From positions 64,001-128,000 of the IMG/VR virus record IMGVR_UViG_3300032282_005553: a stretch of 64,000 nt of DNA; one strand, given 5' to 3'. This document shows, one piece after another, positions 1 through 19,000 of this stretch. Position numbers and translations under genes: made by a program. This DNA is from a virus. The notes under the pieces are model-generated. The model was not told the origin of the DNA. It was given only the letters and a program-made list of their open reading frames with translations, and made no database searches. The stretch's first letter is position 1, and the number at the start of each line of letters is the position of its first letter.

Positions 1-2
1 CA

Positions 3-3000
3 CAAAGAAATGAACCCAGAGGAATAGTGCCATACCAAGCAATAAGAAGCAGTATGCTCTATTCGACTGATGCAGGCACAGAATTGAATGCCCAGAATAA
101 GATTTATGCAAGAATATACCACAATCCTGAGAAAAAAATGAATCGTGCAGTCGGCGCTGGGGCAACAAATATGCCGACATTCGAAACCGGTGGACCATTT
201 GAACCAACGCACGATGGATATTTTAACATGGAAGCAAGAACTTTCGATATAGATAAAAAGAAAGTTATCCCATCTGCTGATGCTCAAAAAATTGGTAAGT
301 ATAATCAAGATCTGTATCAAATTTTAGTAAAAACATACAAAGCCCTAGTTCCTGGGGCCGGTCAACCACGACTATCAGATCTACCTCTATCTGACAGCGG
401 TGGTAAAATTGGTGTTTTTGATAGTTTTCAAAAACAACTAGCTAATTTATATAATGGAATAACTCCTTATGAGAATTTTATTGGAGAAGCTTTAGATATT
501 CTAGATATCGATGAAAGCGCTAAGGCTAAAAACTTTACCGTAATTTCAGCTGAAGCTGCTACACAACAGATGGTCCAGGATTATATTGAGAAACAAGTAA
601 AGAATAAAGGTGGTAAACAGCCATTTTCTGGTGGAAATCCCATATCTATAGGAATAGCAGGAGCGCCACCCGGACTTGACTGGGTTACAGAAGATCTTTT
701 TGACATAAAAGAACTTGCCACAGGCAACACAAAAGAATTCCCTGTCCTTATAAATATTTTACCTTCTGAAATATCAGAAGAATTTGAAAAACGAGCAGCA
801 GAAGCGACAAAAGGCTCAAGTCCTATCAAAACATCTTTATTTAACCACGATGGTGAATTATCTTTAGATTTGGCTGGTGGCAAAAAAGCAAAATTTCCAT
901 ATTTTTCCACATACACCAAATATACTGGCCCACTTTGGGACACTGCTACTAATACATATTCTGATAAAAATAATATTAAAGATTTCTTTTTAGCTAATCC
1001 ATTAGATGGAAATACTCCAGCAAATATTTTTAAAGGATTAGATATTAGTAATAATAGATTATTTGATAAAACAAAACCAATAGATTTTGATGATCGCGGA
1101 AATGTATCACTATCATACGACCAAGCTAAACTAACAGAATTGATCGATCTATACAGAGTAGATAAAGATAAAAGAGAAGCAGACAAGATAGATGCAGCAT
1201 CAATGGCACTAAAAGCAGCATCAATAAGATTCAAATTGAATAAAGATGTTGGTCCATTAGGAGCTTTAATCAAAGCAGATGCTAAGGTTGGAGATAATGA
1301 TATTTTTTCAGGATTTACCGACCAGGCCGATAAATCCATGTCGATTGGAGATTTTCTAATAGAAGCTGCTCAAAAATATGCTGAACAAACAACAGAAGAA
1401 GCTAAAACAGCTACCGGTGAAGTTGCAGATTCTAAATTTAATAAAGAAGGATTTGCAGATCAAAAAAAGCCATTTCTTGATACATTAAAAGGATTAACGC
1501 TTGGTTCATTACGAATTTTTGGTAGAAGACCATTACCAGGATTTCCACGAGCTTGGTTTTATGCTTTAGGTGGTGGCAGGGCATACTCTTTATTAAAAAA
1601 TAATAGAATGACCCTACCAATCGGTAAAAATATAGCAACTTATTTAACTGGTATGCTAGCCATGAATTCTGGACCCGGAGCACAAGCTAGCACATTAGCT
1701 TCTATGTCAACAAATTTGAGAGCTTTTAATTATTTCGAAGATTTACGTACTTTAATTCAGGGAGCATTTTTAACCTATCAACAATTATCTCAATCTGATA
1801 CTAGTAGTATTGTTCAATTGCTTAAAAATTCTAGAGATGCTTTTGGTAATCTTGATTTGTCAACAGATGCTGTAGAAGATATATTCAGAAGCCTAGGAGC
1901 CACGCAATCTTTTAATGCTGCTGGCTCTCAGGCTTTGGGAGGAGATTATCAGAGAAATCTTGCTAATCAGCTCGCAGGATCAAAAATAAGAGTTGTAAAA
2001 CAAAGTGGAAAAATAGAAGATGTCGATGCTGCTAATATACCATACAAAAATTATACTGATCTTATGGCATTGGCACTTAATCCTTACAATGAATATACAT
2101 CTAAAGATATTAGAAGTGGAATATTTGATAAATTAACGCAAGATATATCAACGGCTACCAATCAATATGGTGGTCCGATGTTTTCTCAAAAGACAAGAGC
2201 ATTTTTACTAAATAATCTATCTACATTAAAAGATTGGTATGCTGGAAATGGTAATTGGCTAGGACAAGATTATTTATTTGATAAAGTTGCAAATCCTGAC
2301 TCCAAAGACAGAGGAGACAAATTCAAGCAAAATCTTGCCATTGGAAATAATCTATGGTCAGAGGCTAATATTGCCCATCGCAATTTAGGTGCGGCAGTTA
2401 AGTTTGGTGGAGATTTGCCACACGAAGAGTGGTTTAATAAAAGAATAGAAGCAGGAAATTTTGCTACCGGCGGTATGGTTTATGCTCAAGATGGATCTCT
2501 TATAAACTTTACTCCACGCGGCACAGACACTGTTCCGGCAATGTTGACTCCTGGAGAATTCGTTGTCAATAGAGCAGCAACCGCCAAGAATCTACCTCTC
2601 TTAAAACAAATAAATGGCAATAGAGGCTATAGCAGAGGAGGGGTTGTTAATTACCTACAAGATGGTGGCCAAGCCGAAGGCGCACCAGAATTTGATCTTG
2701 CAACTACCACCGAATATAGACCAGAAAATAGTTTTGGAAATAGAAGTATTTCAACTTTATCTAGAATACAATATGAGTCTAGATATGGTGTTCCCGGAGT
2801 CAGAGATAATGTAAAAATGATCTCTGAAGAAATATATAAAACACTCAGAGACAGATCGGCACAGGAATCAACACTAAGACAAGCTGGTACTCCAATTTTT
2901 TATGATGATAATAGTACAAGATCTAAAAGACAACAAGCAAACAAATTAAAATTAAATAAAAAAGAATATACAGAATTGTCTATTGCTGAAACCGAAAGAA

Positions 3001-6000
3001 GAATACCGCTATTTCAAAGACAAACAGAAGAATATTATCCAAATGGAACAAACTTTGATCATAGTGTTTTTGATAGAAAGATGCTAGATTTCCAAGGTTT
3101 GCCAACTATTAACTATTTAAATGCAGATATTAGATCACATGGTCAAAAAATTGCAGCAATGAAAGATGCTGTTGGAGCCAAGGAAAATGGATTCCCTGAT
3201 TTATTAGCCAAATATTTATTAGGAATGAAAGATTACGAAAGCACCTGGGCTAGTGTTGGACTAAGCTTTGCTCTAGATCTACAGAATATAATGCCAACCC
3301 TTAGTGGAGGTGCTAGTCAGGCTCTTATAGGAAAAGGTTTATCGTGGTTAGGCAAAAATACAGGACTTAAAAAGGCTATAACAATAGCTATGCAGAAAGG
3401 TAAATCAGCATTAAGTTCACTAGATAAAATTGCATTTAGACAAGTTGAAAAAGGAATAGATGAAATTCCTATTAAAGATTTGGGATTAGCAGATTTACCA
3501 GACTCTAAAACAGCACAATCGCTGTCTCCTAGTCCCACAAAGATACCCAGAGGAGGAGAAAGAATATCATTTGATGACAAAGCACTACAAATGTTTTTCC
3601 GTTCTGTTCCGACTAATGTTAAGGATTTTAAAAAGTCTTTCTGGCAAACAGTTTCTTCAAAAGGTATTTTTCAACAAGTTTCCGATTTTACCAGATTTAT
3701 TGGACTACCAGACAACGAAGCATTGCTTGGTGTTCCAGCTGCTATAGATATCAAACATCTTGAACCTGGCATCAGAGGTAGATTTGATTCTAATCTCGCC
3801 AGATTGAGTACTCAAGGGGTATCCGGAGCAGCATCAACAGGAAGAGGACTCGCTTCTGTACAACCATATGCAGAAGTAAATACTTTGTATCATGAGTTAG
3901 CTCATCAATTTTTAAATGGAATCAGAACACATCATCCTAAAGCATGGGAATTCTATCAGGAACGTGTTCAAGATATGTTTACTGATCACAGAAGTTGGAA
4001 TAATCTTGCAAATGCTTTTGATGCTATTGGAGGAAGCTATAGAAGTGAAGATGTTTTATATGGTGCTAGTTATAAGCTAAGAGATTTACAAAAAATATTA
4101 GATCAACATCCTGGAGACAAAGATCTAATAAGATTAGTTAGTAGAGCTACAAAACATAAAGATGCCGGTAGAGCTAGTTGGGCGAGCATAGATGAAGAAG
4201 TAACAGATGTATTGAGATCCAAGAGAGGATCACAGTACCTTGAGACTATGCAAAATAATGGATTAGAAGAATTCTTAACAGTAGTTGTTCAGAACGCTGG
4301 ACGACTTGACAAACAGATGAGACAAGCACTGGACACAACATTAGAAGCCATATTTCATAACTCTGGCATAGCAAGAGACAGAGGATTATTTGATAATTTT
4401 TATGCTGAACTTGATAAACCAACAATTTTCCAAAGAATAAAAACCGCAATATCTGCTAGGCTTAGTAGGCCAAAAGCAGCAACAAGGGTTCCAAAACCAC
4501 CAAGACCTCAAAAGCCAAAAACTAAAAATACTCCGGATAACGATATGATCGCTGGTCGTATTGGTCCAAAAAAATCTAAAACAAAATCAAAAAATAAAAA
4601 GGAGAAAAGAAGATGGCCGTGGATTATTCCTATTCCTATTTTTGGTTTGGGTGCGGCCGGGGTCTACGAGGCTACTAAGCAACCTTCTGCCCCTCTTTTA
4701 GAAGAAGGAGAGGGATTGGGCGGAGAATTTATTGGCGGAGGTGAAGGCGGCGGAATGATGCCAGAGATTACCTCTCCTAATCCAGCAAGAGAAGGCGCTA
4801 TGGGTGCTGCCGCGACACAACCAGGAGCAAACGGTGGACAAAATGGTGTTGGTCCTTCATTTCCGAATGAAGCCAGAAATAATGCTCAAGCAGCAGCACA
4901 AGAAGAAAAAGCTAGAAAATCCGGATGGAAAAAATCTAAAAAAGAAAAACCTTCGTCGTCACCTTTACCCGAATCTTCTGATTTTCCTGAAGCTATTCCT
5001 TTTTCTCCTTTAGAAGATACCAATGAAGAAACATCCTCTAATTTATTGAATAGACCGGGCGAGCCACTTAGAAGAGCTAAAGGAGGCATAGTTTATGCAT
5101 CAAATGGCTCATTGATTAATTTTCAACCAAGAGGCACAGATACTGTTCCGGCGATGCTAACGCCAGGAGAGTTTGTAGTTAATAAAGCAGCAACACAAAA
5201 GAATTTGCCAGCATTACAAGAAATTAATAGCAATACATATATGGCAGATGGTGGACTGTTAGGAAGACCAAAGGTCGTACAAGGGGTTACTCTAAATCCA
5301 AGAGATAAACTAACGCCAAGATTTAATAATATAGACTCTGCTATTAGTACTAGTAATAAAAACTTAAATACAGTATTACAGAATGAAAACTCACAAAATA
5401 ATAAATTAAATGAATTGCTTATAGATAGTAAAAATAACAAAAAGGTATTATCTCAAATTAATACCAAAACAGACTTTACTAATTCAAAAGTTAATGATAT
5501 AGCTAGAAACACCGGATCTTTAACAGATACGATCAATGCTTTTTGGCAAATGCTTTCCGGTCCCGGTCCTAGCGTGGAGATGCCTCCTAGGGTAATAAAT
5601 CGCAGCACGGGCGGCATAATATATGCTAGCGAAGGAACTCTTGTTCCTTATTCTCCAAAGGGAACAGATACAGTTCCTGCTATGTTAACTCCGGGAGAGT
5701 TTGTAGTAAATAGAGCTGCTACTAGCAAGAACTTGAGCCTATTAAAGAATATTAATAATGGATATAGTCAAGGTGGGATAATATATGCTGATGATGGAAT
5801 AAAAGTTCCAGGAACAGGAGACTTTACAACAACAGTAAGCGGAGCATCAACAAATAATATACAATCAAGTCAAACATTATCTGACAAAGAAATTGAATTA
5901 GAAAGACTCAGACAGTCCTTTGAACAAGCAAGAGCTAGATTCGAAAGAGAAAAAGAACAAAGAGATAGAATACAATATTCTCTCGCTTTAGTTAATGAAG

Positions 6001-9000
6001 GATTATCTAAATACAAAAATCAGAGAGGTGCTGCCTTAGATAGATTATTAGGCATAAGTAATCCATCGAACATATTAAATGATGAAAAAAGCTCGCTACA
6101 AAGAAAATTAACTTTTAATTTACTTGGTGTTGATAATGACGTCGGAGCATGGATTGCTAGAGCAGAACTTTTAAGTAAACAGCTTGCTGAAACTGGTGTT
6201 GGAATAACAGGAGCAACAGTTGCCGGATCGGCCGGTGCCGTAGCAGGCGGCGGAGTTGCTAGTCCAGTGACATCAGCAACATTGGGAACAGCGGGATATA
6301 TAGTTTCTGTAAGTGCATATAAAGATTTTCTAGGCGAACAATATAAGGAAAGAATGGATCTTTTACGACAAGCATTTCCTGGTCAATCTACGGTGACAGA
6401 TTTGGCCCCTGCTGTTATGGGAGTTTCTTCATTAGCCAAAAATGCTTATACTAACCTTGGGGCTATAGGTATAAAACAAGCCGGAAAAGAGATATCTTCG
6501 GAAGTTGCTGGAGACGCTATTGGTACAATATCAGCAGCTTTTGCAACTGGCGAACCCATCAGCTATAGTGCTCAAGATGCTATTTTGGCTTCATTAGGCA
6601 TTAAGCTTAGCGGACCGAGCAGATCAATTAGTACCACTAGATCCAGAGCATCAGAACAGCCGACAGCATCTTCTACAAAATTGTCACAACAGCCACCTCC
6701 GCTACCGAGTACTTTAGGATCCATTTTTGCTTCATATAAAAAAGCAATATCTAATAAAATAGATATGTTATTTAATAGATCTCCCGTAGCAGTACATGAT
6801 CAAGCACTTAAATATTTCAAAGAAAGAGGAGCAGTAAATTTTGATGAGATTAGAGAACACTTACGAGGAGAAGTTAAATCATCCAAAGGAGTTGCCGTTA
6901 GTGTCGGAATGATAGCTAAAATGCTCGGAGTAGAACCTAAATATCTTATAGCAGAAGATATGAGAGCGGTTAGAAAAACTATCGAAGGTGCCAGTGGATA
7001 TTATAGTGATTTTACTAGTCGTGATGCTATTAAAGTTGATGAGAACACCGGACTTGTTGCTGGAACTTTTAGTAGGGAACCGGGCGATATTGATCCGGGC
7101 GCAATATTAGCATTAAATAATGATAATAAAGTAAATAATAGTATTGTTTGGCATGAGATCATGCACTCCATGCTTACTAGAATGGGTAAAAATGGATATG
7201 GAAGATTTATCAAATTAATGCAAGATAATCAAAAATCTGTTTTGGGATATATAACTGAACGACCAGATCTATTTCGTAGTTATGGTATAACAGATATTGC
7301 AGATGGAGCACATTATGTAGGAAGAGCTCTTCAAGATATGCCACAATGGTCCTTTTTAAAGAGCGCAGCAGAGATGGCAAGTGATGATGATATTAAATAT
7401 GCCATAGCTCAAAAACAAGCTTACTTACAAAAATTAAGTACTGAAGATCCCGGTAGATTGTCTTCTCCTGATATATTTAATGATATAGTTCCAGGAACAA
7501 TGTTGAGAGTTTCACATATTACAGGCATGGAATCTGCAGAAAATCACTATGGTGGTATCAAAAATGCAATTAAATATGTTGAAGCAGTAATCAAAAGCGG
7601 TCGAGGTGTCGATCCAGCATTCCTTGCACATGCAGGGGATCATAATGCTAAAATCATGGATATATTGAGTGATCTTAATATTATTGAAGAAAGATCTGCT
7701 TTCGATTGGACGAAAGAATATGGGTATGAAGAATTTGCGACTCAACTTTTACAAAATTTTGATAGATTGGATCCAAAAGGACTGTCTTTCTTAAGTGATA
7801 TTATCTCTTCAGTATACGATGATAATAGAATCGCTGCTCTTAGGGATCCAAAAATTGTTTATGCTCAACTACAAAAAGTATTCAAGGGTTCTGGTTCAAA
7901 TATAGAGAAAGAACAATATAATGGATTAGAAACTCCTGCTTTATCTAGTGGAGGAATAATAAAATCTTTATACGCCAGTACTGGTAAATTGATTTCATAC
8001 AAGCCAATAGGTACAGATACTGTGCCAGCAATGTTGACTCCTGGCGAGTTTGTTGTTAATGCACAGGCTACAGCTAAAAATCTACCATTATTAAAATCTA
8101 TCAATGAAGGTAATTACAAGAGCAGTGGAGGAGTAGTATATCTTGACAATGGCGGAGTCGCCGACGAAAAAGATCTTGCTGCCGCTAATGGAAGAAATGG
8201 TTTCGAAAGAAAAATGGCAGTTGGAGCAAAACAGAGAAATAAACTCCAAAAAATTGCTGCAAAACCTGATGATACTGGTACTTTATGGGTATTTCTCAAT
8301 CCATCTCCTATGGTGATAGATAAAGAATTAGTTGCTTCAGGATTTACTGCTCTGAGCTTGTTGAAAAAAGATCTTACCTATACTGATGTTAATGAACCAT
8401 TAACAACACTTGATCTGGGAGCAACAATATATAGTAAAAGAGCTAGCTCACAGACAAAGGCATTGAAACATGTTAATGATAGATTAAATATCAAAGATAA
8501 AAAAGATCCCAAGAGAATTAAAAAAGCTATTACAGCAGGTGAGGCTTTGGATAGAGCTAGGAGAGAATACCAGAAACAAACAATAGGTAATAAAGTTATC
8601 TCTGAACTAGCTTATCAAATGAATATTATGCCCAAAGAATTTGAAATTTTAAATGATCAAGCCTATGAAAACCCTGACGATGTTAATAAGCATATACAAT
8701 CTATAGCGGAAGAAATTATCTTATGGAAGGATAATGATGCTAGAAAAAATAGAAATGGAATGAAAGTAGCACAAGAGTATGGTAAATATATTAATAGAAA
8801 TAGCGATATCAATGTTAAAAATAAAAACGCTTTGCAAGCCATAGCTTTGATGATGAGTGATAAAGATTTAGTTGTTCATGATATACGAGCACTTAATAAA
8901 AAATATCCTGTTTTTAAAGACACGGATCCGATAGAAATATTAAAAACTCAAACAAATGCTCAAAAAGACGAAAGAGAAAAACTAGAAGAAATTATTGATG

Positions 9001-10010
9001 GTCTTAAGAACTATGCTGCTGATGCTTATGTCAGCGATATTATTAATAGTCCTGAATTCCAATCTGGTGCTGGTATTTTATCTAGCGACGCATTTGCGGG
9101 CGTCACAGTTTCTAATTTTAGCGGAGGCAATTTTTCAGATCATGTTGTTACCACAAAACCAATAGTAAAAGCTGCTCAATTTAATAAAGGTGGTGTGGTT
9201 TACGCTGATGATGGTATGCTCATACCTTATCAGCCAAAGGGAACAGACACCGTCCCCGCAATGCTAACTCCAGGCGAGTTTGTAATAAATAGAGCTGCTA
9301 CACAACGTAATTTACCACTACTTAAAGCTATAAATAGTAACACATACGCTAATGGCGGAGTAGTATATGCTACTAAAGGACTAAATCCTCGTCAACAAGA
9401 ATATTATGATGCTAGACAAGCAAGAAAAGAAGAATACGAAAGAATGCAAGCAGAAAGACGAAGAGCATACGAGAACAAAAATAACGTAAATAGATTTAGA
9501 GATTCTCAAGGAAATCTTTTGAATCAGCAAACACGAAGAAATGTATTAATGGGCAGCAATCAGCAACAAAATATTGGTCAATCACGAAATAATACAAATA
9601 ATGTTGATCAGAACATGGGCCAATTTAGTAATAATTTACAAACTATTAATCAACTACTACAAACTTTTGGTAACAGCATCAACACATTTAATACTGTTAT
9701 ATCGCAGATAAATAGACAAATTACCGGTTCGGCTGAGCCAAGGGGTGTATCTAATAATAAAGGCACAGCGCCAAATCTGGACGGCATGGGCGGATTTGTT
9801 GCTAAATTTGATGAATTTATTAACCAACTAAAGGGTCTAAACTTGCCACCAGTAATTAATTTACAAGTTGCGCCAATTACATTGAATATAACCGGAGGAG
9901 AAGCACTTGCAAAAGCACTAGAAGGACCAATGAGTAATCAAATCAAGTCAGAAATAGCGGCAGCATTCCAAAGACTAAACGACGCTACAGAAGGCGCCAT
10001 TCAAGTTTAA
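3..10010 (+). CDS. Giant tape-measure-like polyvalent virion protein (5'-truncated) with five GTDTVPAMLTPGEFV repeats and two HExxH metallopeptidase domains
   Basis: The frame is open from position 3 (no stop upstream of the GTG at 27). FATGG...GTDTVPAMLTPGEFVVN resembles the tape-measure C-terminal motif. HELAH at 3891 and HEIMH at 7152. Lies upstream of tail genes. Confidence 0.75.
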   Translation, partial: QRNEPRGIVPYQAIRSSMLYSTDAGTELNAQNKIYARIYHNPEKKMNRAVGAGATNMPTFETGGPFEPTHDGYFNMEARTFDIDKKKVIPSADAQKIGKYNQDLYQILVKTYKALVPGAGQPRLSDLPLSDSGGKIGVFDSFQKQLANLYNGITPYENFIGEALDILDIDESAKAKNFTVISAEAATQQMVQDYIEKQVKNKGGKQPFSGGNPISIGIAGAPPGLDWVTEDLFDIKELATGNTKEFPVLINILPSEISEEFEKRAAEATKGSSPIKTSLFNHDGELSLDLAGGKKAKFPYFSTYTKYTGPLWDTATNTYSDKNNIKDFFLANPLDGNTPANIFKGLDISNNRLFDKTKPIDFDDRGNVSLSYDQAKLTELIDLYRVDKDKREADKIDAASMALKAASIRFKLNKDVGPLGALIKADAKVGDNDIFSGFTDQADKSMSIGDFLIEAAQKYAEQTTEEAKTATGEVADSKFNKEGFADQKKPFLDTLKGLTLGSLRIFGRRPLPGFPRAWFYALGGGRAYSLLKNNRMTLPIGKNIATYLTGMLAMNSGPGAQASTLASMSTNLRAFNYFEDLRTLIQGAFLTYQQLSQSDTSSIVQLLKNSRDAFGNLDLSTDAVEDIFRSLGATQSFNAAGSQALGGDYQRNLANQLAGSKIRVVKQSGKIEDVDAANIPYKNYTDLMALALNPYNEYTSKDIRSGIFDKLTQDISTATNQYGGPMFSQKTRAFLLNNLSTLKDWYAGNGNWLGQDYLFDKVANPDSKDRGDKFKQNLAIGNNLWSEANIAHRNLGAAVKFGGDLPHEEWFNKRIEAGNFATGGMVYAQDGSLINFTPRGTDTVPAMLTPGEFVVNRAATAKNLPLLKQINGNRGYSRGGVVNYLQDGGQAEGAPEFDLATTTEYRPENSFGNRSISTLSRIQYESRYGVPGVRDNVKMISEEIYKTLRDRSAQESTLRQAGTPIFYDDNSTRSKRQQANKLKLNKKEYTELSIAETERRIPLFQRQTEEYYPNGTNFDHSVFDRKMLDFQGLPTINYLNADIRSHGQKIAAMKDAVGAKENGFPDLLAKYLLGMKDYESTWASVGLSFALDLQNIMPTLSGGASQALIGKGLSWLGKNTGLKKAITIAMQKGKSALSSLDKIAFRQVEKGIDEIPIKDLGLADLPDSKTAQSLSPSPTKIPRGGERISFDDKALQMFFRSVPTNVKDFKKSFWQTVSSKGIFQQVSDFTRFIGLPDNEALLGVPAAIDIKHLEPGIRGRFDSNLARLSTQGVSGAASTGRGLASVQPYAEVNTLYHELAHQFLNGIRTHHPKAWEFYQERVQDMFTDHRSWNNLANAFDAIGGSYRSEDVLYGASYKLRDLQKILDQHPGDKDLIRLVSRATKHKDAGRASWASIDEEVTDVLRSKRGSQYLETMQNNGLEEFLTVVVQNAGRLDKQMRQALDTTLEAIFHNSGIARDRGLFDNFYAELDKPTIFQRIKTAISARLSRPKAATRVPKPPRPQKPKTKNTPDNDMIAGRIGPKKSKTKSKNKKEKRRWPWIIPIPIFGLGAAGVYEATKQPSAPLLEEGEGLGGEFIGGGEGGGMMPEITSPNPAREGAMGAAATQPGANGGQNGVGPSFPNEARNNAQAAAQEEKARKSGWKKSKKEKPSSSPLPESSDFPEAIPFSPLEDTNEETSSNLLNRPGEPLRRAKGGIVYASNGSLINFQPRGTDTVPAMLTPGEFVVNKAATQKNLPALQEINSNTYMADGGLLGRPKVVQGVTLNPRDKLTPRFNNIDSAISTSNKNLNTVLQNENSQNNKLNELLIDSKNNKKVLSQINTKTDFTNSKVNDIARNTGSLTDTINAFWQMLSGPGPSVEMPPRVINRSTGGIIYASEGTLVPYSPKGTDTVPAMLTPGEFVVNRAATSKNLSLLKNINNGYSQGGIIYADDGIKVPGTGDFTTTVSGASTNNIQSSQTLSDKEIELERLRQSFEQARARFEREKEQRDRIQYSLALVNEGLSKYKNQRGAALDRLLGISNPSNILNDEKSSLQRKLTFNLLGVDNDVGAWIARAELLSKQLAETGVGITGATVAGSAGAVAGGGVASPVTSATLGTAGYIVSVSAYKDFLGEQYKERMDLLRQAFPGQSTVTDLAPAVMGVSSLAKNAYTNLGAIGIKQAGKEISSEVAGDAIGTISAAFATGEPISYSAQDAILASLGIKLSGPSRSISTTRSRASEQPTASSTKLSQQPPPLPSTLGSIFASYKKAISNKIDMLFNRSPVAVHDQALKYFKERGAVNFDEIREHLRGEVKSSKGVAVSVGMIAKMLGVEPKYLIAEDMRAVRKTIEGASGYYSDFTSRDAIKVDENTGLVAGTFSREPGDIDPGAILALNNDNKVNNSIVWHEIMHSMLTRMGKNGYGRFIKLMQDNQKSVLGYITERPDLFRSYGITDIADGAHYVGRALQDMPQWSFLKSAAEMASDDDIKYAIAQKQAYLQKLSTEDPGRLSSPDIFNDIVPGTMLRVSHITGMESAENHYGGIKNAIKYVEAVIKSGRGVDPAFLAHAGDHNAKIMDILSDLNIIEERSAFDWTKEYGYEEFATQLLQNFDRLDPKGLSFLSDIISSVYDDNRIAALRDPKIVYAQLQKVFKGSGSNIEKEQYNGLETPALSSGGIIKSLYASTGKLISYKPIGTDTVPAMLTPGEFVVNAQATAKNLPLLKSINEGNYKSSGGVVYLDNGGVADEKDLAAANGRNGFERKMAVGAKQRNKLQKIAAKPDDTGTLWVFLNPSPMVIDKELVASGFTALSLLKKDLTYTDVNEPLTTLDLGATIYSKRASSQTKALKHVNDRLNIKDKKDPKRIKKAITAGEALDRARREYQKQTIGNKVISELAYQMNIMPKEFEILNDQAYENPDDVNKHIQSIAEEIILWKDNDARKNRNGMKVAQEYGKYINRNSDINVKNKNALQAIALMMSDKDLVVHDIRALNKKYPVFKDTDPIEILKTQTNAQKDEREKLEEIIDGLKNYAADAYVSDIINSPEFQSGAGILSSDAFAGVTVSNFSGGNFSDHVVTTKPIVKAAQFNKGGVVYADDGMLIPYQPKGTDTVPAMLTPGEFVINRAATQRNLPLLKAINSNTYANGGVVYATKGLNPRQQEYYDARQARKEEYERMQAERRRAYENKNNVNRFRDSQGNLLNQQTRRNVLMGSNQQQNIGQSRNNTNNVDQNMGQFSNNLQTINQLLQTFGNSINTFNTVISQINRQITGSAEPRGVSNNKGTAPNLDGMGGFVAKFDEFINQLKGLNLPPVINLQVAPITLNITGGEALAKALEGPMSNQIKSEIAAAFQRLNDATEGAIQV
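2520..2570 (+). repeat. Intragenic repeat copy 1 (GTDTVPAMLTPGEFVVN core)
   Basis: Core read directly; flanked by GGMVYAQDG and GGVVNYLQDGG. Confidence 0.95.
5133..5183 (+). repeat. Intragenic repeat copy 2
   Basis: GTDTVPAMLTPGEFVVN, preceded by GGIVYASNG. Confidence 0.95.
5661..5711 (+). repeat. Intragenic repeat copy 3
   Basis: GTDTVPAMLTPGEFVVN, flanked by GGIIYASEG and GGIIYADDG. Confidence 0.95.
8010..8060 (+). repeat. Intragenic repeat copy 4
   Basis: GTDTVPAMLTPGEFVVN, followed by GGVVYLDNGG. Confidence 0.95.
9240..9290 (+). repeat. Intragenic repeat copy 5
   Basis: GTDTVPAMLTPGEFVIN, flanked by GGVVYADDG and GGVVYATKG. Confidence 0.95.
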
Positions 10011-10024: not shown

Positions 10025-13000
10025 ATGTCTCAAAATATTATCGATGACTCATTAATACTAGCCACAGGTACCGTATTTGACCACTTAATTTCCGTTAGTG
10101 GTGGAATAACTACTGTATTGAATAATAACAATAGAGATATTGATTTTCAAATAAAAAGCACAGGAACTAGCTCTTCATTATACTATGATGCTTCAACAGG
10201 TCGTTTAGGAGTTGGAATTACTGGCGCCCCAGACGCTATGCTTCATGTTAGAGCCCCATGTGCTCAAGATGGTTTAATTTTAGAAAGTATTACCAATTGT
10301 CCAACGGGCGTTCAATTATTATTATTGCATAATAAAGGTATTTCTCCAACTGGTGGTGATTATCCTGCTGTTATTAATTTAGCAGGAAGGAATACCGGCG
10401 CAACTGTAACAAAGTATGCTCAAATTAAATCAAAAATTTTAGATTCAGAATCTTTAAAAACTAGCGGAGAACTTATATTCTCTGTTGATGATAAAGGCTC
10501 TCTTGAAGAAGTATTTGCTGTTAATTTATCAAAATTAGTTTTGGGAGGACTAAATAATAATCCTTCTGGGTCAGCAAACTATACTGTTATAGGTCAATCT
10601 AATTATAGTAGTGGAATATCTTATCTATTAATAGGCAATAATAATTCTGGATTACGATTAGATGATTCATTTTTGTTAGGTGACAATAATATTTATCGTG
10701 GCCCACAAATTTTTTCTTTATCTAATGACAGTAGTATAACTGGCACAAGATTATTTGTTGCCGGACTAGATAATACTGTTGTTGGAAATAGTGGTTTCAT
10801 TTGCGGAATAGATGGTCAAGTTAATGGATCATACAATTTAGTATTATTGGATAATAGCTCTATTAATTCTAATGGAATGGTTGGTATAGTAAGAAATGGT
10901 GCAGTACTCGGCAACTCTGGTATAATATTAGGATCTGATACTATTAGTAGTGGTAATCTCAATATTAATTTTGGTAATAATAATGTTTTGTATGGTAGTA
11001 GAGTAACTGCTATCGGTTCAAATATATCGTCTGAAGGTAGTCTTAATACTATATTTGGCAATTTAGTTTTAGTGAGCGGAAACAGCATTATTTCTATAGG
11101 GTCTAGTCAAAGCATCAATGGAATAACAAATGGTATATTGATTGGAAATAATATTGATTTGTCTAATACGTCTAATCTTTTATATTTAGGTTTTAATAAT
11201 CATACAGATGAAAGTTTGAACAATAGTATTGTTCTTGGTGGAAACAATATCTTAGATGCTGGAGCACTATCAGATATAATCTTAGTTGGACAAAATAATA
11301 AAACACAAGATATGGTAAATTCTGTACTTGTTGGAAACAATAATTTAGCTAGTGGTGATTTAAAAAATAATATTATTTTAGGTAGTGGAAATGCACTAAG
11401 AAATAATAGTTATAATAATATATGCCTAGGATTATTAACTAATCAAACGGGAGTTTATGTAGATTCAGACGGAGGCATTGATGGAACCCCCAGATCAATA
11501 TCTAGTAATAATATAAATTCTGTAATCGTTGGAGTACATAATCAATCATATCTAAATTTATCTAATGCTATAATTGGAAATAAAAATATTACATCTGGTT
11601 TGTATATTAATAATTTGGGATCATTTAATGACATAAGAAATACAAGTAAGGCGTATGTTCTCGGTAATTCAAATTCTGTTGAAGGAAATAATCTTTGTGT
11701 AATTGGATCAAATTCTTTAGTGATAGGAAATGATTCTATTGTTATTAGTAACAAAAATAATTCTAATATTTATGGTAGTGGAATTATATCTATTGGAAAT
11801 AACCCTTATGTAAGTAGTGGAAATGTTATAGTTGGATATGATAATACTGCTGGTATATCAGGATTGATTTATGGAATAAACAATACTCAGGGTGTTGGTG
11901 GAGATTTCTTTACATTTACTAGCGGGTCTAATACAATAACGCTTTATACAACATCGGCCCCTTACCAACTCAATGATCGCCTTTTATTACATATCAAAAA
12001 TCCTATTTCTAAAAATGGAATATTAGTATCTACTGTAACTGCTGATCCTACCATAAATAGAAATAACGGAACAACTACCATAACATTAAGTGATATTCCA
12101 GAATGGTCTAATAGATATTTATCAGTAAATAATAGTTTTGATGAAAATAATACCCCGTCAACGATTGGCAGTGGTATTATCATGCTATATTCTAGGGGTA
12201 CAAATCAGATATATTATGGCTCTAATAATATGATTCTTGGCAATAATAATAGTGTTGCTCTGAATAATAGTATTGTTGTCGGTAATAACAGCACCTCTTC
12301 CGGTATTAATAATGTTATTATTGGTAATAATATTACTGGTTTAACAAATAATACATTGAGCATTGGTACATCAAATTCTAATAAGGTAGTTATATCTGAT
12401 TCTAGTGTAATTTTTAACACAGGAACAGCTCAGCAATCAATCGTTGTTAGAGCTACAGATGGTACAATAACTCAATATAGTGACTTATCCAATAAAAGAT
12501 TAGGCATTAATACATCATCTCCAAGATCAGATCTTGATGTTAGTGGAGTAATAACATCACAACAATTAAGAATGGGACTATCTGCCGGAAGTGGGTATGT
12601 ATTAACTTCAGATATTGATGGATTTGGTTCATGGACATTGCCGGTTAGGATATCTGGAGCATCAAGTGGATTACTATTCAATTATCCAAATTCTAACAAT
12701 AAGTTAGCTATTAGCAGCACAGATATTTCATTGAATATTCAAAAAGATTTCGGTAATGCTGATACGCACTCTGTAGATTTTTATGGTAATTTTGCTATAC
12801 ATAAAACTGGTATTATTCTTAACACAAATAAAGGAAGCTCCATAACTGCTGCTAAATTTATTGTTTGGGGATCTGGTGGACCAGAATGGTCTGCTCCAAC
12901 TATTGAAATAGATCCAAACAATAATAATTTGGTTAAAATGTATAATTTATCTTCTGTTAGTGGCAAATTAAATCAATTGAATGTTGATACATATGTTATG

Positions 13001-14368
13001 TTTCCATCATCAACAACGGGTACAATTCTTTCTATTAGTGGAGACAATAGAACATTAATTGGAAAAACTTTTGACCCTCATTCAATACTATACTCTGATA
13101 TAAACAGTAGGGCTACTGGAACTAAAAACTTTAGATGGTTTGATGATGATAGAGTATTAGCCTTGGGTGGATCAGGTATTATAAATGATAATTTAAATCC
13201 AGCAAGATATGGCATAGTTCTTAGTACAAACAATACGCAAAGTACCATATTTAATAATTTTGGATTAGGAACAGATTTCTCTATTATCAAATCAGGTGAA
13301 AATGCAGTTAATGCTGGTAGTGGTTTCCACATGTTGTCAAAAAACGGCAAAGTTGGAATTAATACAACAATAAATAAATTAAATGATATATATGAGATCC
13401 CTGGCGCTTCGTTGTGTGTAGGTGGTAAAACAGTAACGGATACACTTAGAGTTACTGCATTTAGTCAAGTAGGAGACTATTTGAGAGTATCTAGTAATGG
13501 CGAAGTAGTTGCTAGTGGCGCTACTTTCGACTCAACATTTGTTGGAACACATCCGATAGATGTTGTTTCGTATGCTGGAAATTCTGATATTGAATTTAGT
13601 TTATCAAAAACAGACAACGACGGCGTTGCAGAACTTGATTCCTCCGATATAGGTCGCACAGTTGCCTTTAATGGTGTGGATTGGGCGATAGCTAGTGGAT
13701 TAAATATATATGATGTAAGTAATAAAAGAGGTATGTTAGTAGGTTATGATGGATCATTATTTAATTCAGCTGGATTAACAACTAATACAATAGGCGCTCA
13801 ATCGCATTATGTCAATGTTTTTGCTGGTGGTGGATTTAATTCTTTGGGAGCATACTCTTCTAGTAATAATGCTAACACCACTAGAGGAACATCTCAGTTT
13901 GCTCAATATTTCTTGAGAACGAGAACTAGTGGAAATGTCGTAAGGCCATTATTAATGAATTTTAATACTCTCTCTGACGGCACTATTTCGAAAACAGTTA
14001 ATAATACTATAGTTTTTCCTGATAATGCCTATGGAGTATGGACATATACAGCATATATAAATGTTATGTGGAGTGGTAACGCCACAATGGGTGGCGCTGG
14101 ATATGTAATCAATGGTTCAGTTGGTAAATTTTCTTTGAATACTAATAACCTTGTTGATCTTGGATATACTGTAGATAGTTGGACATCCAACTCACAAGTT
14201 ACACATAATATAAAACCGGAAGTTAAGCAGGATATAGGTGGTAGTAAGCAGACATTGGAATTTACTGCTTCAGGTAATCCAATGTATATCATGTTATGGT
14301 CAGCAACAGTCAATATTAATCAAACACATTGGCCAATTGGTTCAGCATTTACTTCTACAATATTATGA
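10025..14368 (+). CDS. Tail fibre / receptor-binding protein with beta-roll (YadA-head-like IGNNN) repeats
   Basis: Many ~14-aa (I/V)G(N/S)xN repeats; fibre-type motifs GRLGVG, RLGINTSSPRSDLDVSG and GKVGINT; AAGG RBS upstream. Confidence 0.7.
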   Translation: MSQNIIDDSLILATGTVFDHLISVSGGITTVLNNNNRDIDFQIKSTGTSSSLYYDASTGRLGVGITGAPDAMLHVRAPCAQDGLILESITNCPTGVQLLLLHNKGISPTGGDYPAVINLAGRNTGATVTKYAQIKSKILDSESLKTSGELIFSVDDKGSLEEVFAVNLSKLVLGGLNNNPSGSANYTVIGQSNYSSGISYLLIGNNNSGLRLDDSFLLGDNNIYRGPQIFSLSNDSSITGTRLFVAGLDNTVVGNSGFICGIDGQVNGSYNLVLLDNSSINSNGMVGIVRNGAVLGNSGIILGSDTISSGNLNINFGNNNVLYGSRVTAIGSNISSEGSLNTIFGNLVLVSGNSIISIGSSQSINGITNGILIGNNIDLSNTSNLLYLGFNNHTDESLNNSIVLGGNNILDAGALSDIILVGQNNKTQDMVNSVLVGNNNLASGDLKNNIILGSGNALRNNSYNNICLGLLTNQTGVYVDSDGGIDGTPRSISSNNINSVIVGVHNQSYLNLSNAIIGNKNITSGLYINNLGSFNDIRNTSKAYVLGNSNSVEGNNLCVIGSNSLVIGNDSIVISNKNNSNIYGSGIISIGNNPYVSSGNVIVGYDNTAGISGLIYGINNTQGVGGDFFTFTSGSNTITLYTTSAPYQLNDRLLLHIKNPISKNGILVSTVTADPTINRNNGTTTITLSDIPEWSNRYLSVNNSFDENNTPSTIGSGIIMLYSRGTNQIYYGSNNMILGNNNSVALNNSIVVGNNSTSSGINNVIIGNNITGLTNNTLSIGTSNSNKVVISDSSVIFNTGTAQQSIVVRATDGTITQYSDLSNKRLGINTSSPRSDLDVSGVITSQQLRMGLSAGSGYVLTSDIDGFGSWTLPVRISGASSGLLFNYPNSNNKLAISSTDISLNIQKDFGNADTHSVDFYGNFAIHKTGIILNTNKGSSITAAKFIVWGSGGPEWSAPTIEIDPNNNNLVKMYNLSSVSGKLNQLNVDTYVMFPSSTTGTILSISGDNRTLIGKTFDPHSILYSDINSRATGTKNFRWFDDDRVLALGGSGIINDNLNPARYGIVLSTNNTQSTIFNNFGLGTDFSIIKSGENAVNAGSGFHMLSKNGKVGINTTINKLNDIYEIPGASLCVGGKTVTDTLRVTAFSQVGDYLRVSSNGEVVASGATFDSTFVGTHPIDVVSYAGNSDIEFSLSKTDNDGVAELDSSDIGRTVAFNGVDWAIASGLNIYDVSNKRGMLVGYDGSLFNSAGLTTNTIGAQSHYVNVFAGGGFNSLGAYSSSNNANTTRGTSQFAQYFLRTRTSGNVVRPLLMNFNTLSDGTISKTVNNTIVFPDNAYGVWTYTAYINVMWSGNATMGGAGYVINGSVGKFSLNTNNLVDLGYTVDSWTSNSQVTHNIKPEVKQDIGGSKQTLEFTASGNPMYIMLWSATVNINQTHWPIGSAFTSTIL

Positions 14369-14418
14369 CATAAAAAAGGATAGATTATTTAATTTTATCA
14401 AAGGAAAAAGGATAATAT

Positions 14419-16038
14419 ATGGCAACTGGCGTCTTTATGACATATGGATCATTCAAATTTAGTCCATCAGACGGATATCCTATACCGCAAGTGTCTCTTT
14501 CTAAAGAATTTGACAGAGATCAAGCTGGAAGAATTATTGGTGGACGAACTATTGTATCGCTAGAAGGAGTAATATATAATAATATTCATGATCTAGATTT
14601 TCAAGGTTTTTTAACAAGAGAAAAAGACTTAAGAGAGGCATTTAGTAAAGACACATTTATAAAATTTGGTTGCGGTACGAATGAAAATACTCCAAGCTAT
14701 AGTGGTAATGCTAAAGTTAATAGATTATCAATTGATAAAACAGAAAATCGTTGGGTATCAACAATAGGATATAATGCAGACCTAATAGTAGAAGATGTCC
14801 CAACAATTTCTCAAGAATGTACATCAACCGGAATATATAATATAACAAGTTGTCAAGATGAATGGAACATGGAAATTATAGATGAATATAGCTATGTAAA
14901 TTCTCCGGTTGGTGCAAATGTTCTCAGAGAAGCCCTTAATTTTCCATTAGGCTCAAAATATCCAATATATCGTATCAGTAGAACCATAGGAGCTGTTGGT
15001 AAATTCATTCCAACAGGAAACAATCTTGGAATTAGTGCGATAGCTGGCGCTAAAAAATGGGTAACATGCAGATTAAGTACAGCTCCAGAATCGTCTCTTA
15101 CAGGAATGCTTAGCGGGATAGTTCTGTATAATTTTGTAAGATCGGTTGCAGTAGATGACCCAGGCGGTTCTTATAGACTAACAGATAATTGGATAGGAGT
15201 TCCAACGGGATACTCTACTTCTGGACTATATATTGAATCTTTTAATATTGATAGTTCATTAGATAGTAGTTATCTTAGAACAGTTACTATAAATGGAACA
15301 ATAAAAGGACTAGAGCCATTTGATAGTGGAAAAATTTATGATAAATCTATAATAGGTACTGGTCTAAAAGGAAGTATATCCCCAATGGCACAACTAGTAA
15401 GGAGCGACAGTGCAACTAGTAGATTTGATCAAGCATTAAGTGGTTATAATAGTATAAAAAATAGTATGTTTATGAGAGTACAATCTTTTGTAGAAAAACA
15501 GAATAATCCTAGTGGAATATTTAGAAGATTCTTTGGAAGAGATGAAAATACAGTTAATCCTTTACCCCTAAGTGTAACAGAAGGATTTAATCCAACCGAA
15601 GGTTCCGTAACCTATAGTTGGATCTATAATAATAGACCATTGAACTTAATTTCAGGATCTATTTCTGAAACACTAACAATTAATGATAGTTTTCCAACAC
15701 AGGTTGTTGCTGAACTTTTCGTATTGGGCAGGAGATTGGGGCCGGTCATGCAAAGTTTAGGCACTTATACAACAGCATCTAGAGATGTTACATTTGATGT
15801 TGTTATGCCAAGACCCACAGGATTGGCCGGTATCAAATTTCCTAAAACAGCATATATACAAATTACGGGACTAGTAGAAAGTATGAATCCGATGTTCTTA
15901 TTAGGATCAAGTGTTTGCAAATCATTTGTTAAAAATAATACAGAGAATTGGAGTGTAACAGACGGTAGATTTACTAAACAGAAAACTTGGGTATGGCAGC
16001 ATTGTTATCAAGATATAACACAAAATTCAAACATATAA
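14419..16038 (+). CDS. Putative tail structural protein (distal-tail/baseplate-like)
   Basis: 539-aa beta-rich ORF with AAGGA RBS in the tail module; function inferred from position only. Confidence 0.5.
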   Translation: MATGVFMTYGSFKFSPSDGYPIPQVSLSKEFDRDQAGRIIGGRTIVSLEGVIYNNIHDLDFQGFLTREKDLREAFSKDTFIKFGCGTNENTPSYSGNAKVNRLSIDKTENRWVSTIGYNADLIVEDVPTISQECTSTGIYNITSCQDEWNMEIIDEYSYVNSPVGANVLREALNFPLGSKYPIYRISRTIGAVGKFIPTGNNLGISAIAGAKKWVTCRLSTAPESSLTGMLSGIVLYNFVRSVAVDDPGGSYRLTDNWIGVPTGYSTSGLYIESFNIDSSLDSSYLRTVTINGTIKGLEPFDSGKIYDKSIIGTGLKGSISPMAQLVRSDSATSRFDQALSGYNSIKNSMFMRVQSFVEKQNNPSGIFRRFFGRDENTVNPLPLSVTEGFNPTEGSVTYSWIYNNRPLNLISGSISETLTINDSFPTQVVAELFVLGRRLGPVMQSLGTYTTASRDVTFDVVMPRPTGLAGIKFPKTAYIQITGLVESMNPMFLLGSSVCKSFVKNNTENWSVTDGRFTKQKTWVWQHCYQDITQNSNI

Positions 16039-16055
16039 ATTAATAGGAGTTTATT

Positions 16056-19000
16056 TTGAGTTATTGTAATTTGCCAGAAAGATTAATTGGACCATATAAT
16101 CAAACACTATTTTTAGGATGTAGCGTATCCAATTTTACATGTAATCTTGCATGGGGCGCAGAACAAAGCACATTACAGGTTAATTTAGTAGAGGATAATT
16201 GTTATCATCCACAGTCTATCTTTTATGGCTCTATGGATTTACAATTGGATAGCATAACACAACAGCCAGAAAACGCAAATAGTACAGCATTTACAAAAAA
16301 TGGAGATGTTTTTAATACAAATGATCCTGCTAAAACCGTACATAAAACCATAGCTTTTAGTGAAAAAGATAAAGAGAATGCTAGAGATCAGGAAAATGCA
16401 ACTCTATCCTATGATAATAAAGACTATGGTAAGGTTGTATATGATATAAATGGAAATAGGGGCTACTGGACAGAGCCAGATCCTTACTTTATCGGAGCCC
16501 CAGGCAATAAATTTAATAGTAACGGCTATGATATATTAGGTGTGCCAGTAAGATTCAAATTTAATGATTTTAGTTTCGGAGGAATAGTTTCTTCATGGAA
16601 ACAAGCAGGATCTCAAGGAGGATTAAGAAGTTTCGATGTAGAAATTAAAAGTTTTGCGAGCTTATTAAATGGGGTTCAATTAATTATAGGAGGTTACGGT
16701 GGAGGAATTTGTGGTATTGTTCCGAATACCAGCAATAATCCAACAGGGAAAAATATAGCGATGCCCATGCCTTATGGTGTTGATTTTTATGAAAATTCTC
16801 CACCAGTTTTTTCTTTTTTTGATTATACCGCAGATATTGCTCAAGGAAATATTCCTAATGTTATAAATATATATGGACATTTAACATATCTTGGATATAA
16901 AAATAAAGTATATGGTGGAGCAGGATTGAACCAAGAAGGGATGAGATCGCAGGATATATACGACAGCTTAGAAGCTTTGTTGGGTCTTAATAGTCATAAT
17001 AATATCGATCATATTTCTCCATTCTCACCATACGGCGCTATTATATCGAGATCTATAAGAAATAATTCTACGTCTAGTGAAGTGGATCCTTTTTCAGAAA
17101 CTTATAATAATCTTAATTTAACTCATATGGGAATATGTCCAAATTCTATAGCTATAGACGGACATCGTAGATCAAGATTGAAACTTGATCTTTCAGAAGT
17201 ACCAAGACCACCTAGATGGTTGAGAACACAAGGAGAAGTTATAAGTTTAATGCAGTTCATTTCTGATATTTGTGATGGATCTGGATTTGATTTTTTTGTT
17301 GATTTTGTTCCACCTGATTCTCAGCAGATAGCTCATAATATATCTGGAATTATAAAAATTAGAACCGTATCCAGACGTCAACAACCTAAAAAAGATCAGA
17401 TACAAGCCTTAATTAATTATCTAGTAACTAATAATGGAGTAACGTCTTATAATAAAGGAAAAGAATTTACAGATGTTAATACTAGATCAATGTATATTGG
17501 AGGAAAACAAAAAAGATTACTACAATGTAGAACAGAAAGATTTGCTTTTACTCAAAATACTTTAATATGGGATCCATGGGTCGGACAGCTTGGAGTATTT
17601 ATAGACTATAATCCAATAGGGGGTGGCACAAATGCTACTGCTGGAACAAGTGTTGCTTCGAGCATAGCTTACGGAACTAATCTTGTTAGACAACCAAATT
17701 TATTATCTACCAGAAGGTACTCTTTTAAGAGCTCTGGTGGCGCTGCTGTGGCTAGCGATTCTTATGGGTTCAATGACTCACAGGTATTCGGACAGACTAC
17801 AAATTTTTCAAGAGGAAACTATACTGATACGGCTACTCTTGGGGGAGGTCTAGGTTTTGAAAAATTTGAGTATATCTCAAAGGTATTGACGGGCTCAGAA
17901 GCAGCAGCTTCTACACGAAATTTACCAATTTATACCGACGCTATCTGCCCATATTTTGGAGTAGGGTCAAATGGATTAGTGAGACCGGTTTATTTTGATA
18001 AGAATATGGGACAAATGCAAATTATCTTTCAAATGTCCGATTTAGATGGACTAATATCTTATCCTCTTTCTAGTATACAGGGACCATATCCAGACAAACT
18101 TAGTATATTTGCAGCGCCAGTTTTCTTGGTATTGGAAAACGAAATAAGAGCAGCTGGCGGAGGATTTATGCAATGGATCACATACTGTTTCAGTAACATT
18201 TTTTCAACGGATATTTCTGAGATACTATATAAGGCTTTTAAAAATCATTTAGGTTTGGGAGGAAAACCAGCTAAAAATTTATGGCTTGCTGGTATGGATG
18301 GGATATTAAAATCTATGGGCAGACAAACTATAGGAATAGATAATAGAGTATTAGATTCTATCAACCTGTCGTCTGTGGCTCCATATTTTAGAGAATTACA
18401 TGCTGACTTAGAGAAAGTTCATGGTTTTTTTCAGGGTATTGCTAGCGAATATTATGGTAAAAAATATATGATACGAATGCCTGAATTAGCATGGTATCAA
18501 GATATTTCAGTAGCGACAGATAATAATAATAATGCTATTGTACTAGGTAATGATGAGAGTGGTAATCCGATTTATGCATTAGAAGGGACAAATACTGTTT
18601 TTACCAATTATTCTGTCTCATCGGATGGTGCTTGGGAAGAGCCCGGAAATATGATAGATGATACAATAGCAGTAGGAGGAATAAAAGCTTCATTTTTTAC
18701 AGATGAAACCGGAAAAATTGGACCAATCGTCGGATATAATGCTTCTATGGAAAAAGATACTGGAAGACTATGGGCTAGACAACAATTTTTAAGTCAAGCT
18801 ATAAGATATAGACCATATGCGGGTGCTCCATATACCGTGTTTGACTGGAGCCATGTAATGAAATTAAACTACGAAGACCCATTGCTTCAAGATAATACTC
18901 ATTGGTATATCCCGCTTAGCTATCAGATAGAAGAATCTATGATTTTGCCATATAATCATCCAGAAGTTAATGTGCCCATGGCTCATAATATGGGTATGTA

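Follow-up and report, generated by a model that had tools for sequence, protein, structure and literature searches.

A giant phage tape measure protein with eight lambda-type modules and a mosaic distal third

Introduction

How, by what and why the tape measure proteins (TMPs) of phage tails are cleaved is, according to section 12 of PMC12617516, unresolved even in lambda and T5. That question is raised again by a 64,000-nucleotide (nt) stretch of viral DNA (the window), positions 64001-128000 of one viral contig (IMGVR_UViG_3300032282_005553) that measures 136,889 bp and has an estimated completeness of 92%. The window opens inside a giant TMP gene in which one conserved peptide module recurs again and again.

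Results

The open reading frame (ORF) is already open at the 5' end of the window, which holds the 3' half of the gene (amino acids (aa) 3198-6532 and the stop codon; window 1..10010, + strand). The gene begins outside the window, 9,588 nt upstream, and in full spans genome positions 54412-74010 on the + strand, encoding 6,532 aa. Its N-terminal part matches PF10145 (PhageMin_Tail; aa 191-395, 83.8 bits against a cutoff of 33.2, E 2e-23) and TIGR01760 (aa 154-447, 87.3 bits against a cutoff of 28.8), both domains lying outside the window. By these domain matches the gene product is a phage TMP, which bears out the identity proposed in an earlier note made from the letters of the window alone.

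Translation and a motif scan placed the core of the repeated module, GTDTVPAMLTPGEFV(V/I)N, at window positions 2520, 5133, 5661, 8010 and 9240, exactly where the earlier note had put its five copies. Four of these cores read GTDTVPAMLTPGEFVVN and the remaining one reads ...FVIN. Over the 17 core codons the ten pairs of in-window copies have a mean synonymous difference (pS) of 0.73 and a mean nonsynonymous difference (pN) of 0.011, with 38-43 of 51 nucleotides identical pairwise (75-84%), so that the peptide is conserved but the DNA is not. Synonymous sites between the copies are near saturation and the peptide is under purifying selection, as had been claimed. The in-window copies open with GG(M/I/V)(V/I)YA, the exception being the copy at 8010 with GGIIKSLYA; R4, R6, R7 and R8 end in GG(V/I)(V/I)-type strands and R5 (core at 5133) ends in ADGGLLG. 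The bracketing of most copies by GG-type motifs therefore holds apart from one opening and one closing, and the core-to-core spacings of 2613, 528, 2349 and 1230 nt agree with the 0.5 to 2.6 kb given before. The part of the gene that precedes the window adds three copies (aa 539, 1731 and 2945) and brings the total to eight modules (R1 to R8), and when a profile made from these eight copies was run against the whole genome all of its matches (8/8) fell inside the TMP ORF.

The modules come in two forms. The shorter type A (R1 and R2) has the pattern FAxGGxVPGxGxxDTVPAxLTPGEFVIxKKAVxxIG..L..N...GG, and the longer type B (R3-R8) has the pattern GGφ(I/V)YAxxGxLxxFxP(R/K)GTDTVPAMLTPGEFVVN..AT..NLPLL..IN...Y..GGxVxY, with a core that is invariant or nearly so across 46 modules from 14 TMPs. 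All five modules of the window are of type B and lie on the + strand: R4 at 2448..2672 (hidden Markov model (HMM) envelope aa 4013-4087, E 5e-39), R5 at 5067..5282 (E 6e-38), R6 at 5592..5804 (E 5e-37), R7 at 7932..8156 (E 5e-35) and R8, the last module, at 9168..9386 (E 5e-39). Searches of Pfam and NCBIfam returned no model that covers the module. An AlphaFold2 prediction of one type-B module from the 46-row alignment had a mean predicted local distance difference test score (pLDDT) of 51.6 and a single helix over AT..NLPLLKAIN, and the module is therefore not an autonomous domain. Its extreme conservation suggests a linear element that depends on a partner or on oligomerization. A complex prediction of the module homotrimer scored 0.01 against a mark of 0.42, which speaks neither for nor against self-association. 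Short φxxGG motifs occur 26 times in the TMP, against 11.4 +/- 3.3 in shuffled sequences, and 16 of the 26 are inside modules. Others lack the remainder of the module and lie at domain borders such as those directly before the kinase and before zincin-1 (domains described below); they were noted at TMP aa 898-911, 3996 and 4378, the last two corresponding to window 2397 and 3543.

To relate the module to known TMPs we used three profiles, A1 built from the eight copies of this gene, A3 from type B only, and A4 from 27 type-A modules of the clade. A4 matched lambda gpH at residues 731-789 with E 1.6e-8 (A1: E 0.015), the Douge TMP gp16 at two places, 962-1035 and 1410-1459 of 1,699 aa (E 5e-10), and weakly JBD30 gp46 at 1015-1066 (E 0.39). 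On this profile evidence the type-A modules are homologous to the C-terminal module of lambda-type TMPs. In lambda gpH (PDB 8IYK; PMC10721106, PMC12617516) the module reads ...AAAKFHFATGGFTGTGGKYEPAGIVHRGEFVFTKEATSRIGVGNLYRLMRGYATGGYVG... and the plan resembles the one presumed here, with a Gly/Ala-rich hydrophobic stretch before the FAxGG...GEFV...IG..L...GG module and a C-terminal helix that binds the tail tip after it. The difference is one of number and content, since lambda has a single copy in 853 aa and no enzyme domains whereas our TMP has eight in 6,532 aa, six of them of type B. According to the parts of PMC12617516 that deal with processing, a piece of about 14 kDa is cut from the Gly-rich region of gpH, leaving gpH* of approximately residues 1-710; of the released gpHC, residues ~690-817 are unresolved and 818-849 lie on gpI, the exact site and the protease being unknown. 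The lambda module at 731-789 thus lies within the unresolved N-terminal part of gpHC, and the lambda ruler is one that is cleaved in the region of the module. Douge gp16 (PDB 8ZDO; PMC13033339) shows that a cultured phage can carry the module more than once in its TMP, with two copies and not eight; its structure resolves only residues 1658-1699, and the relevant passages of PMC13033339 make no mention of the module.

In GenBank phages the type-B query was found in 177 records (199 places) and the type-A query in 149 records (150 places), including T4-like cyanophages and Pelagibacter phages. The module is almost always present once per record in genes annotated as TMP, and the PHROG TMP profiles match it at 80-95% of the profile length. 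These figures fit the statement of the earlier note that such a motif usually occurs once near the C-terminus of TMPs. We further observed the type-A module once in a gene at the ~7.5-kb position of T4-like cyanomyoviruses (S-SM2, P-TIM68, Bellamy, S-SCSM1) and Pelagibacter phages (records H62-H68 and H73), where the genes are annotated as hypothetical, endolysin or transmembrane protein.

In a rival reading the modules are purely structural or serve assembly and are never cut. They would then act as pegs or "hooks" that bind the lumen of the tube, distal tail or hub, or the tail assembly chaperone, at spaced points along a very long ruler, or in a variant refold into a conduit across the envelope, and the segments between them would mainly supply length and channel-forming material. 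The authors of the JBD30 study indeed describe residues 1022-1066 as a predicted "hook" that anchors the TMP in the baseplate and speculate on a cleavage at 1066, our own match there being the weak one given above. The lack of an own fold is what would be expected of a partner-dependent peptide, and cleavage is, in the portions of PMC12617516 that treat it, known only for the TMPs of lambda and T5. On the other side, the single module of lambda is in the cleaved-off gpHC, beside the cleavage region, and no binding partner of the module has been identified. We consider a purely structural role somewhat unlikely, also in view of the cassettes described below.

The N-terminal 589 aa were used as a query to collect relatives, and 49 viral loci were recovered with 49-68% identity. 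Five of them are complete genomes of 187-230 kb (G001-G005) with uninterrupted TMPs of 5,391, 5,682, 5,863, 6,900 and 7,737 aa, which in the same order of size have 7, 9, 7, 8 and 9 module matches. Together with our TMP and 12 closed shorter genes (2,329-3,829 aa), and after duplicate rows were dropped (L012, L041, L042, L049), they make a set of 18 distinct complete TMPs with 2-9 modules each, the 17 relatives measuring 2,329-7,737 aa. These data bear on whether the giant ORF could be an artefact, be it an assembly error caused by the repeats or a run of separate genes read as one. Assemblers can be misled by repeats, and only one metagenomic contig underlies the record, but the core DNA of the copies is too diverged for this to be attractive (see above), the five independent complete genomes carry 7-9 modules in uninterrupted ORFs of 5,391-7,737 aa without internal stops, and a library of 1.84 billion proteins holds a protein of the exact length (P0009, 6,532 aa) as well as dozens of zincin-bearing proteins of 3,000-7,279 aa. 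We regard an artefact as practically negligible. In one of the giant relatives, G004, two GGφIYA... heads without the DTVPAMLTPGEFV core were seen at aa 5196-5224 and 5958-5988 (L054/L055), which look like decayed or half modules.

Comparison of the 18 TMPs separates a backbone from a variable region. The N-terminal core and R1 are present in every complete TMP compared, segment S2 is matched in 16 of the 17 others and S3 (aa 2993-4012; its distal part at window 1..2447, + strand) in the five giants only, at 25-33% identity; colinearity among relatives extends over the N-terminal core, S2 and S3 and also over the C-terminal end. The C-terminal segment S8 with the stop codon (window 9387..10010, + strand) ends in ~80 aa that are conserved in the five giant relatives (G002 E 4e-16, G004 4e-13, G001 1e-12, G003 5e-10, G005 2e-6) and that we presume to be the tail-tip-binding end by analogy with lambda, T5, JBD30 and Douge. 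A query of R8 plus S8 against viral contigs found no relative. Between these conserved parts, cassette S4 (aa 4088-4885; window 2673..5066, + strand) is homologous, among the other 17 complete TMPs, only to a segment of G005 that sits in another slot, upstream of S2. Segment S5 (103 aa; 5283..5591, + strand) is homologous only to S4 of G001 (E 7e-5), cassette S6 (aa 5132-5840; 5805..7931, + strand) has no homologue in the 17 other complete TMPs and one partial relative (L028), and cassette S7 (337 aa; 8157..9167, + strand) shows weak homology to G001 S6 only (23%, E 3e-6). Judged by these comparisons the window segments S4-S7 are mosaic and mostly private. Thus, as the earlier note had suggested could be checked with an HMM and related phages, module number and inter-module content vary (2-9 modules) around a conserved N-terminal core and C-terminal end; its idea of cargo swapping agrees with the mosaic of S4-S7 and does not extend to S2 and S3, which are conserved colinear backbone.

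The same cassette families recur at different places. The S4-type zincin is found in the first third of the protein in six partial relatives (L004, L014, L015, L044, L045 and L047, with L005 excluded as a duplicate of L004), and in five of the six, all but L004, it directly precedes a kinase-nucleotidyltransferase corresponding to our own S1 cassette. Other cassette families are common to genomes in conflicting patterns, for instance blocks that G002 has in common with G005, G003 and G004. The comparison with G001 is the clearest. Residues 4889-5155 of our TMP align with G001 3698-3978 (45%) and residues 5815-6528 with G001 4658-5390 (31%), and between these aligned blocks our S6 (709 aa) and a G001 segment of 745 aa are unrelated (best E 1.3). 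Because G001 R4 aligns with both our R4 and our R5, our gene has an extra unit of zincin cassette plus module. A tree of 33 type-B modules sorts the copies by position and not by genome, with support of 98/89 for the clade that follows S2, 95/88 for our R4 with G001 R4 and 93/75 for our R5 as sister to both, most other forks being weak. R5 is thus a probable duplicate of R4, and by their grouping the modules are old, individually inherited positional orthologues. Concerted evolution of the copies was considered and rejected on account of the near-saturated synonymous sites and the grouping by position. That backbone modules have been kept for long as positional orthologues is in line with the structural role discussed above.

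Could the modules be mainly recombination joints, at which co-infecting relatives swap segments as in polymorphic toxin loci, with the conservation of the peptide being secondary? Cassette families are indeed shared across genome boundaries and in varying slots, and relative to G001 the segment between two modules has been cleanly replaced. The 18 TMPs yield 1,069 internal ends of high-scoring segment pairs (HSPs), of which 444 (42%) fall no more than 25 aa from a module, where random positions give 13% (at most 16% in 200 randomizations); this approximately three-fold enrichment is only a rough measure, since the pairs lack independence and HSPs tend to end at conserved islands. Exact DNA runs shared by module copies reach 24 nt within our gene and 38 nt between genomes, but their median is 9-11 nt and synonymous sites are near saturation; being old and individually inherited, the modules would at most offer a poor substrate for homologous exchange. 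That 17 aa stay invariant while third positions vary freely indicates selection acting on the protein, and the modules cluster by position with no homogenization. No orphan module-bearing cassettes were found elsewhere in the genome, the module profile being confined to the TMP, and the pattern of polymorphic toxins is absent, since the protein varies internally and keeps its C-terminus (no dedicated search for immunity genes was made). The notion of a homology anchor and the analogy with polymorphic toxin loci, both put forward in the earlier note, hence fare poorly, and we find a mainly recombinational role of the modules highly unlikely.

What do the cassettes contain? S4 and S6 each have an HExxH motif. 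S4 runs from a helical N-terminal part through zincin-1, a basic stretch and a short hydrophobic stretch (WPWIIPIPIFGLGAAGV) to a Gly-rich low-complexity tail, the folded domain of zincin-1 lying at window 3549..4475 (+ strand) with HELAH at 3891-3905 and an EEF third-ligand helix ~125 aa downstream. S6 consists of a coil, a Gly/Ala-rich hydrophobic stretch and zincin-2 (HEIMH at 7152-7166). In an alignment of 10 sequences HExxH and EEF are, among other columns, invariant in 10/10. BLASTP among the inter-module segments of our TMP gave nothing at E <= 0.01, and a pairwise BLASTP of S4 and S6 gave E 5e-4 over the EEF helix; their paralogy emerged only from such pairwise and family alignment, by which zincin-1 and zincin-2 are paralogous.

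An AlphaFold2 model of aa 4360-4730 had a pLDDT of 78.2 and a predicted TM-score (pTM) of 0.76, with residues 21-329 confidently folded: strands at 85-88, 97-100 and 121-124 are followed by the HExxH helix at 133-148 and a helical bundle. The top VIA-align match was the catalytic domain of anthrax lethal factor (1yqy_A, Z 6.2, root-mean-square deviation 5.3 Å over 155 residues), and the next matches were the lethal factor N-domain, the Pro-Pro endopeptidases PPEP-2 and PPEP-3, putative Zn peptidases, ERAP1, PepO, ACE and others (Z 3.8-6.0, with PPEP-2, PPEP-3, ERAP1 and PepO at 3.8-4.9); zincin peptidases make up most of the list, with middling scores, since a Z of about 6 is below the noise level of 7-8 stated for the tool. 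Foldseek of the model against the PDB gave nothing at E <= 0.001, the zincin profile against PDB sequences gave one chance-level row, and the Pfam SprT-like model reached 16.5 bits, below its cutoff of 25.6. The Atlas returned unnamed viral clusters only, plus weak leads to LPD23 (18% share) and LPD1. Motif, predicted fold and a consistent family, with middling structural matches, together point to zincin (gluzincin-like) metallopeptidase domains in S4 and S6. At least two of the in-window segments would accordingly be folded and enzyme-like and not plain coiled-coil spacer. Of the structure predictions called for earlier, that of the cassette gave a fold and that of the lone module did not.

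Against 1.84 billion proteins the zincin profile found 67 representatives at E <= 1e-3 and 33 at E <= 1e-30. The proteins that bear the domain are nearly all 2,700-7,279 aa long, with start positions of the domain ranging from residue 1 to ~4,540 (some of the proteins may be truncated). G001-G004 have no HExxH anywhere and no zincin match, yet they have 7-9 modules. The embedded zincin was considered as the general enzyme that cuts at modules and rejected, four of the six giants having none. The absence of a protease domain from these four fits modules that are never cut; the folded zincin domains, for their part, are hard to explain as ruler filling.

Upstream of the window we noted the S1 cassette (L001:2850-4472, genome ~57050-58670), in which a P-loop (GLPGAGKST) is followed by a HIGH-type nucleotidyltransferase (TxGH, ISGTK). 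It has a sub-threshold match to PF16581 and a weak match to MJ0951 (E 0.006), and it is common to G003, G005 and many partial relatives.

As further observations on the gene and its surroundings, the TMP has no cysteine among its 6,532 residues, which is unusual at such a size and might suit passage through an oxidizing periplasm or unfolded storage. The flanking ORFs (16 neighbouring proteins compared with PHROGs and Pfam) gave almost no matches, tail-fibre-like N-termini 7-10 kb upstream of the TMP being the sole recognized neighbours. Directly 3' of the TMP are five large ORFs (window 10025-30021; 1447, 539, 1387, 548 and 2710 aa), none with a PHROG match at E <= 0.001; the first three (1447, 539 and 1387 aa) were run against Pfam and gave nothing above cutoff. 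Their products are presumably components of the tail tip and fibres that belong to no described type. The structural block that holds the TMP has a second giant ORF, of 3,440 aa (genome 29307-39629, + strand), ~15 kb further upstream.

Discussion

The above results lead us to propose that this protein is a stretched lambda-type TMP. In the ordinary plan an N-terminal core would be followed by a hydrophobic stretch and a single module of the lambda type ("FAxGG...GEFV...GG"), with a tip-binding C-terminal end to close, and the clade of this uncultured ~137-kb phage would have lengthened it by added units that each close with a copy of the module. Part of the added length is conserved backbone, namely S2 with the main hydrophobic stretch and S3, and the distal third is a mosaic of lineage-specific cassettes, here including the two putative paralogous zincin metallopeptidase domains, with the P-loop and HIGH-nucleotidyltransferase cassette upstream of the distal mosaic. 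In each unit the module most likely has the role of its lone counterpart in lambda gpH, which is situated in gpHC just downstream of the Gly-rich cleavage region. It may thus mark a junction at which the chain is processed, held in the tail lumen, or both, and the ruler could leave the tail as a train of segments, some of them enzymatic, ahead of the DNA. Our confidence in this proposal as a whole is evenly divided.

One indication of where a cut might fall comes from T5, whose TMP pb2 is reported in PMC10038345, as far as its account of the cleavage goes, to be cut after R1127 into pb2* and pb2C. The sequence at this site is ...NSFVPR|AEGGMMYPGVSYQMGEHGTEVVTPM, and its ...VPR|AEGGMMYP resembles the type-B head (K/R)(A/S)xGGφ(I/V)YA. 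In 46 type-B heads position -3 before GG is K/R in 27 and F/L/M in 15, position -2 is A/S in 37, and GGφ(I/V)YA follows. A regular expression for the head allowed M at +3, which never occurs in the 46 modules and was chosen with T5 in mind, so that its being "unique in 413,000 residues" is biased; the fair version is a 9-column position-specific scoring matrix from the 46 heads, which ranks pb2 position 1127 first of 1,211 (9.4 bits, the next 0.1). Since no other place in pb2 matches the head as well as the T5 cleavage site, the match argues against modules that are never cut. The rest of the module is unrecognizable in T5, and the resemblance is short and marginally above shuffles. We take the match as a lead, not proof, that cleavage falls just before the module head. 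One could go further and speculate that the head (K/R)|(A/S)xGGφ(I/V)YA is a general TMP processing signal, as at R1127 of T5, and that the giant polyprotein is cut before each type-B module into module-capped pieces (zincins, a kinase-nucleotidyltransferase and other domains) that are stored unfolded in a tail of about a micrometre and injected ahead of the DNA as enzymes made beforehand; we think this stronger version unlikely.

Several observations weigh against the stretched, lambda-type TMP with processed or held junctions that we propose. Cleavage at the modules, docking in the lumen, and delivery and activity of the cassettes are what we infer. For type B the link to lambda runs through type A alone, because the type-B profile A3 against the PDB gave chance-level rows only and no solved TMP. 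For T5, shuffled pb2 reaches 9.4 bits in 880 of 20,000 trials and the full-module HMMs are not significant on pb2 (-4 to +1 bits). The analogies also disagree on the side of the cut, since the authors of the JBD30 study put it after the module and not before. As to the mosaic, the junctions in the comparison with G001 are 25-70 aa from the module edges, some mosaic joints are inside segments, and 58% of homology ends lie away from modules, a figure that counts against recombination joints as well. With four of the six giants lacking HExxH there is no generally available protease in cis. The zincin fold matches are middling and without a Foldseek counterpart, and the confinement of the zincin family to the TMP clade fits a housekeeping part better than a traded effector. 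Finally, the neighbouring tail genes are unrecognizable by PHROGs and Pfam.

Known systems offer precedents for parts of the proposal. The Thermus phage P23-45 has in gp96 a TMP of 5,002 aa with a fused virion RNA polymerase, and what PMC10770324 says of this protein describes a giant TMP with an enzyme that acts in the host, together with a metallopeptidase and membrane regions. It differs in having no module (our three module profiles found nothing at E <= 10 in gp96, nor is there a GE[FYW][VI] motif) and in carrying one N-terminal enzyme and not an array of cassettes. We consider gp96 a functional analogue only; it sets a precedent for the delivery of an active enzyme by a giant TMP. A second parallel is provided by the polyvalent proteins (Iyer et al. 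2017, PMC5512222), very large multidomain proteins that interspersed zincin-like MPTase domains have been proposed to autoprocess. The zincin-interspersed multidomain plan is the same, with nucleotidyltransferases and kinases among the domains, and anthrax lethal factor is both the reference structure named in that paper and the best fold match here. In the sections of that paper concerned with delivery, however, polyvalent proteins are packaged in the head or delivered by conjugation; "tape measure" has no occurrence in the text of PMC5512222 available to us, and none of the LPD Pfam families scores on our TMP. Among the listings and passages that our literature searches returned, we found no published description of reiterated modules in a TMP.

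From the point of view of TMP biology, this clade has the lambda-type junction 7-9 times per protein and thus provides natural replicates of it: the copies number in the dozens, their core of 17 aa is invariant and a head motif can be defined. Together these features yield concrete cleavage-site predictions that mass spectrometry could examine. Should the cassettes be delivered, then besides the capsid the tail lumen would be a route for pre-made phage enzymes, with P23-45 as one existing case, and host-specific adaptation would be recorded in the distal mosaic. If they are not, the clade still informs the question of how a tail tube accommodates a ruler that exceeds 6,000 residues and contains folded domains.

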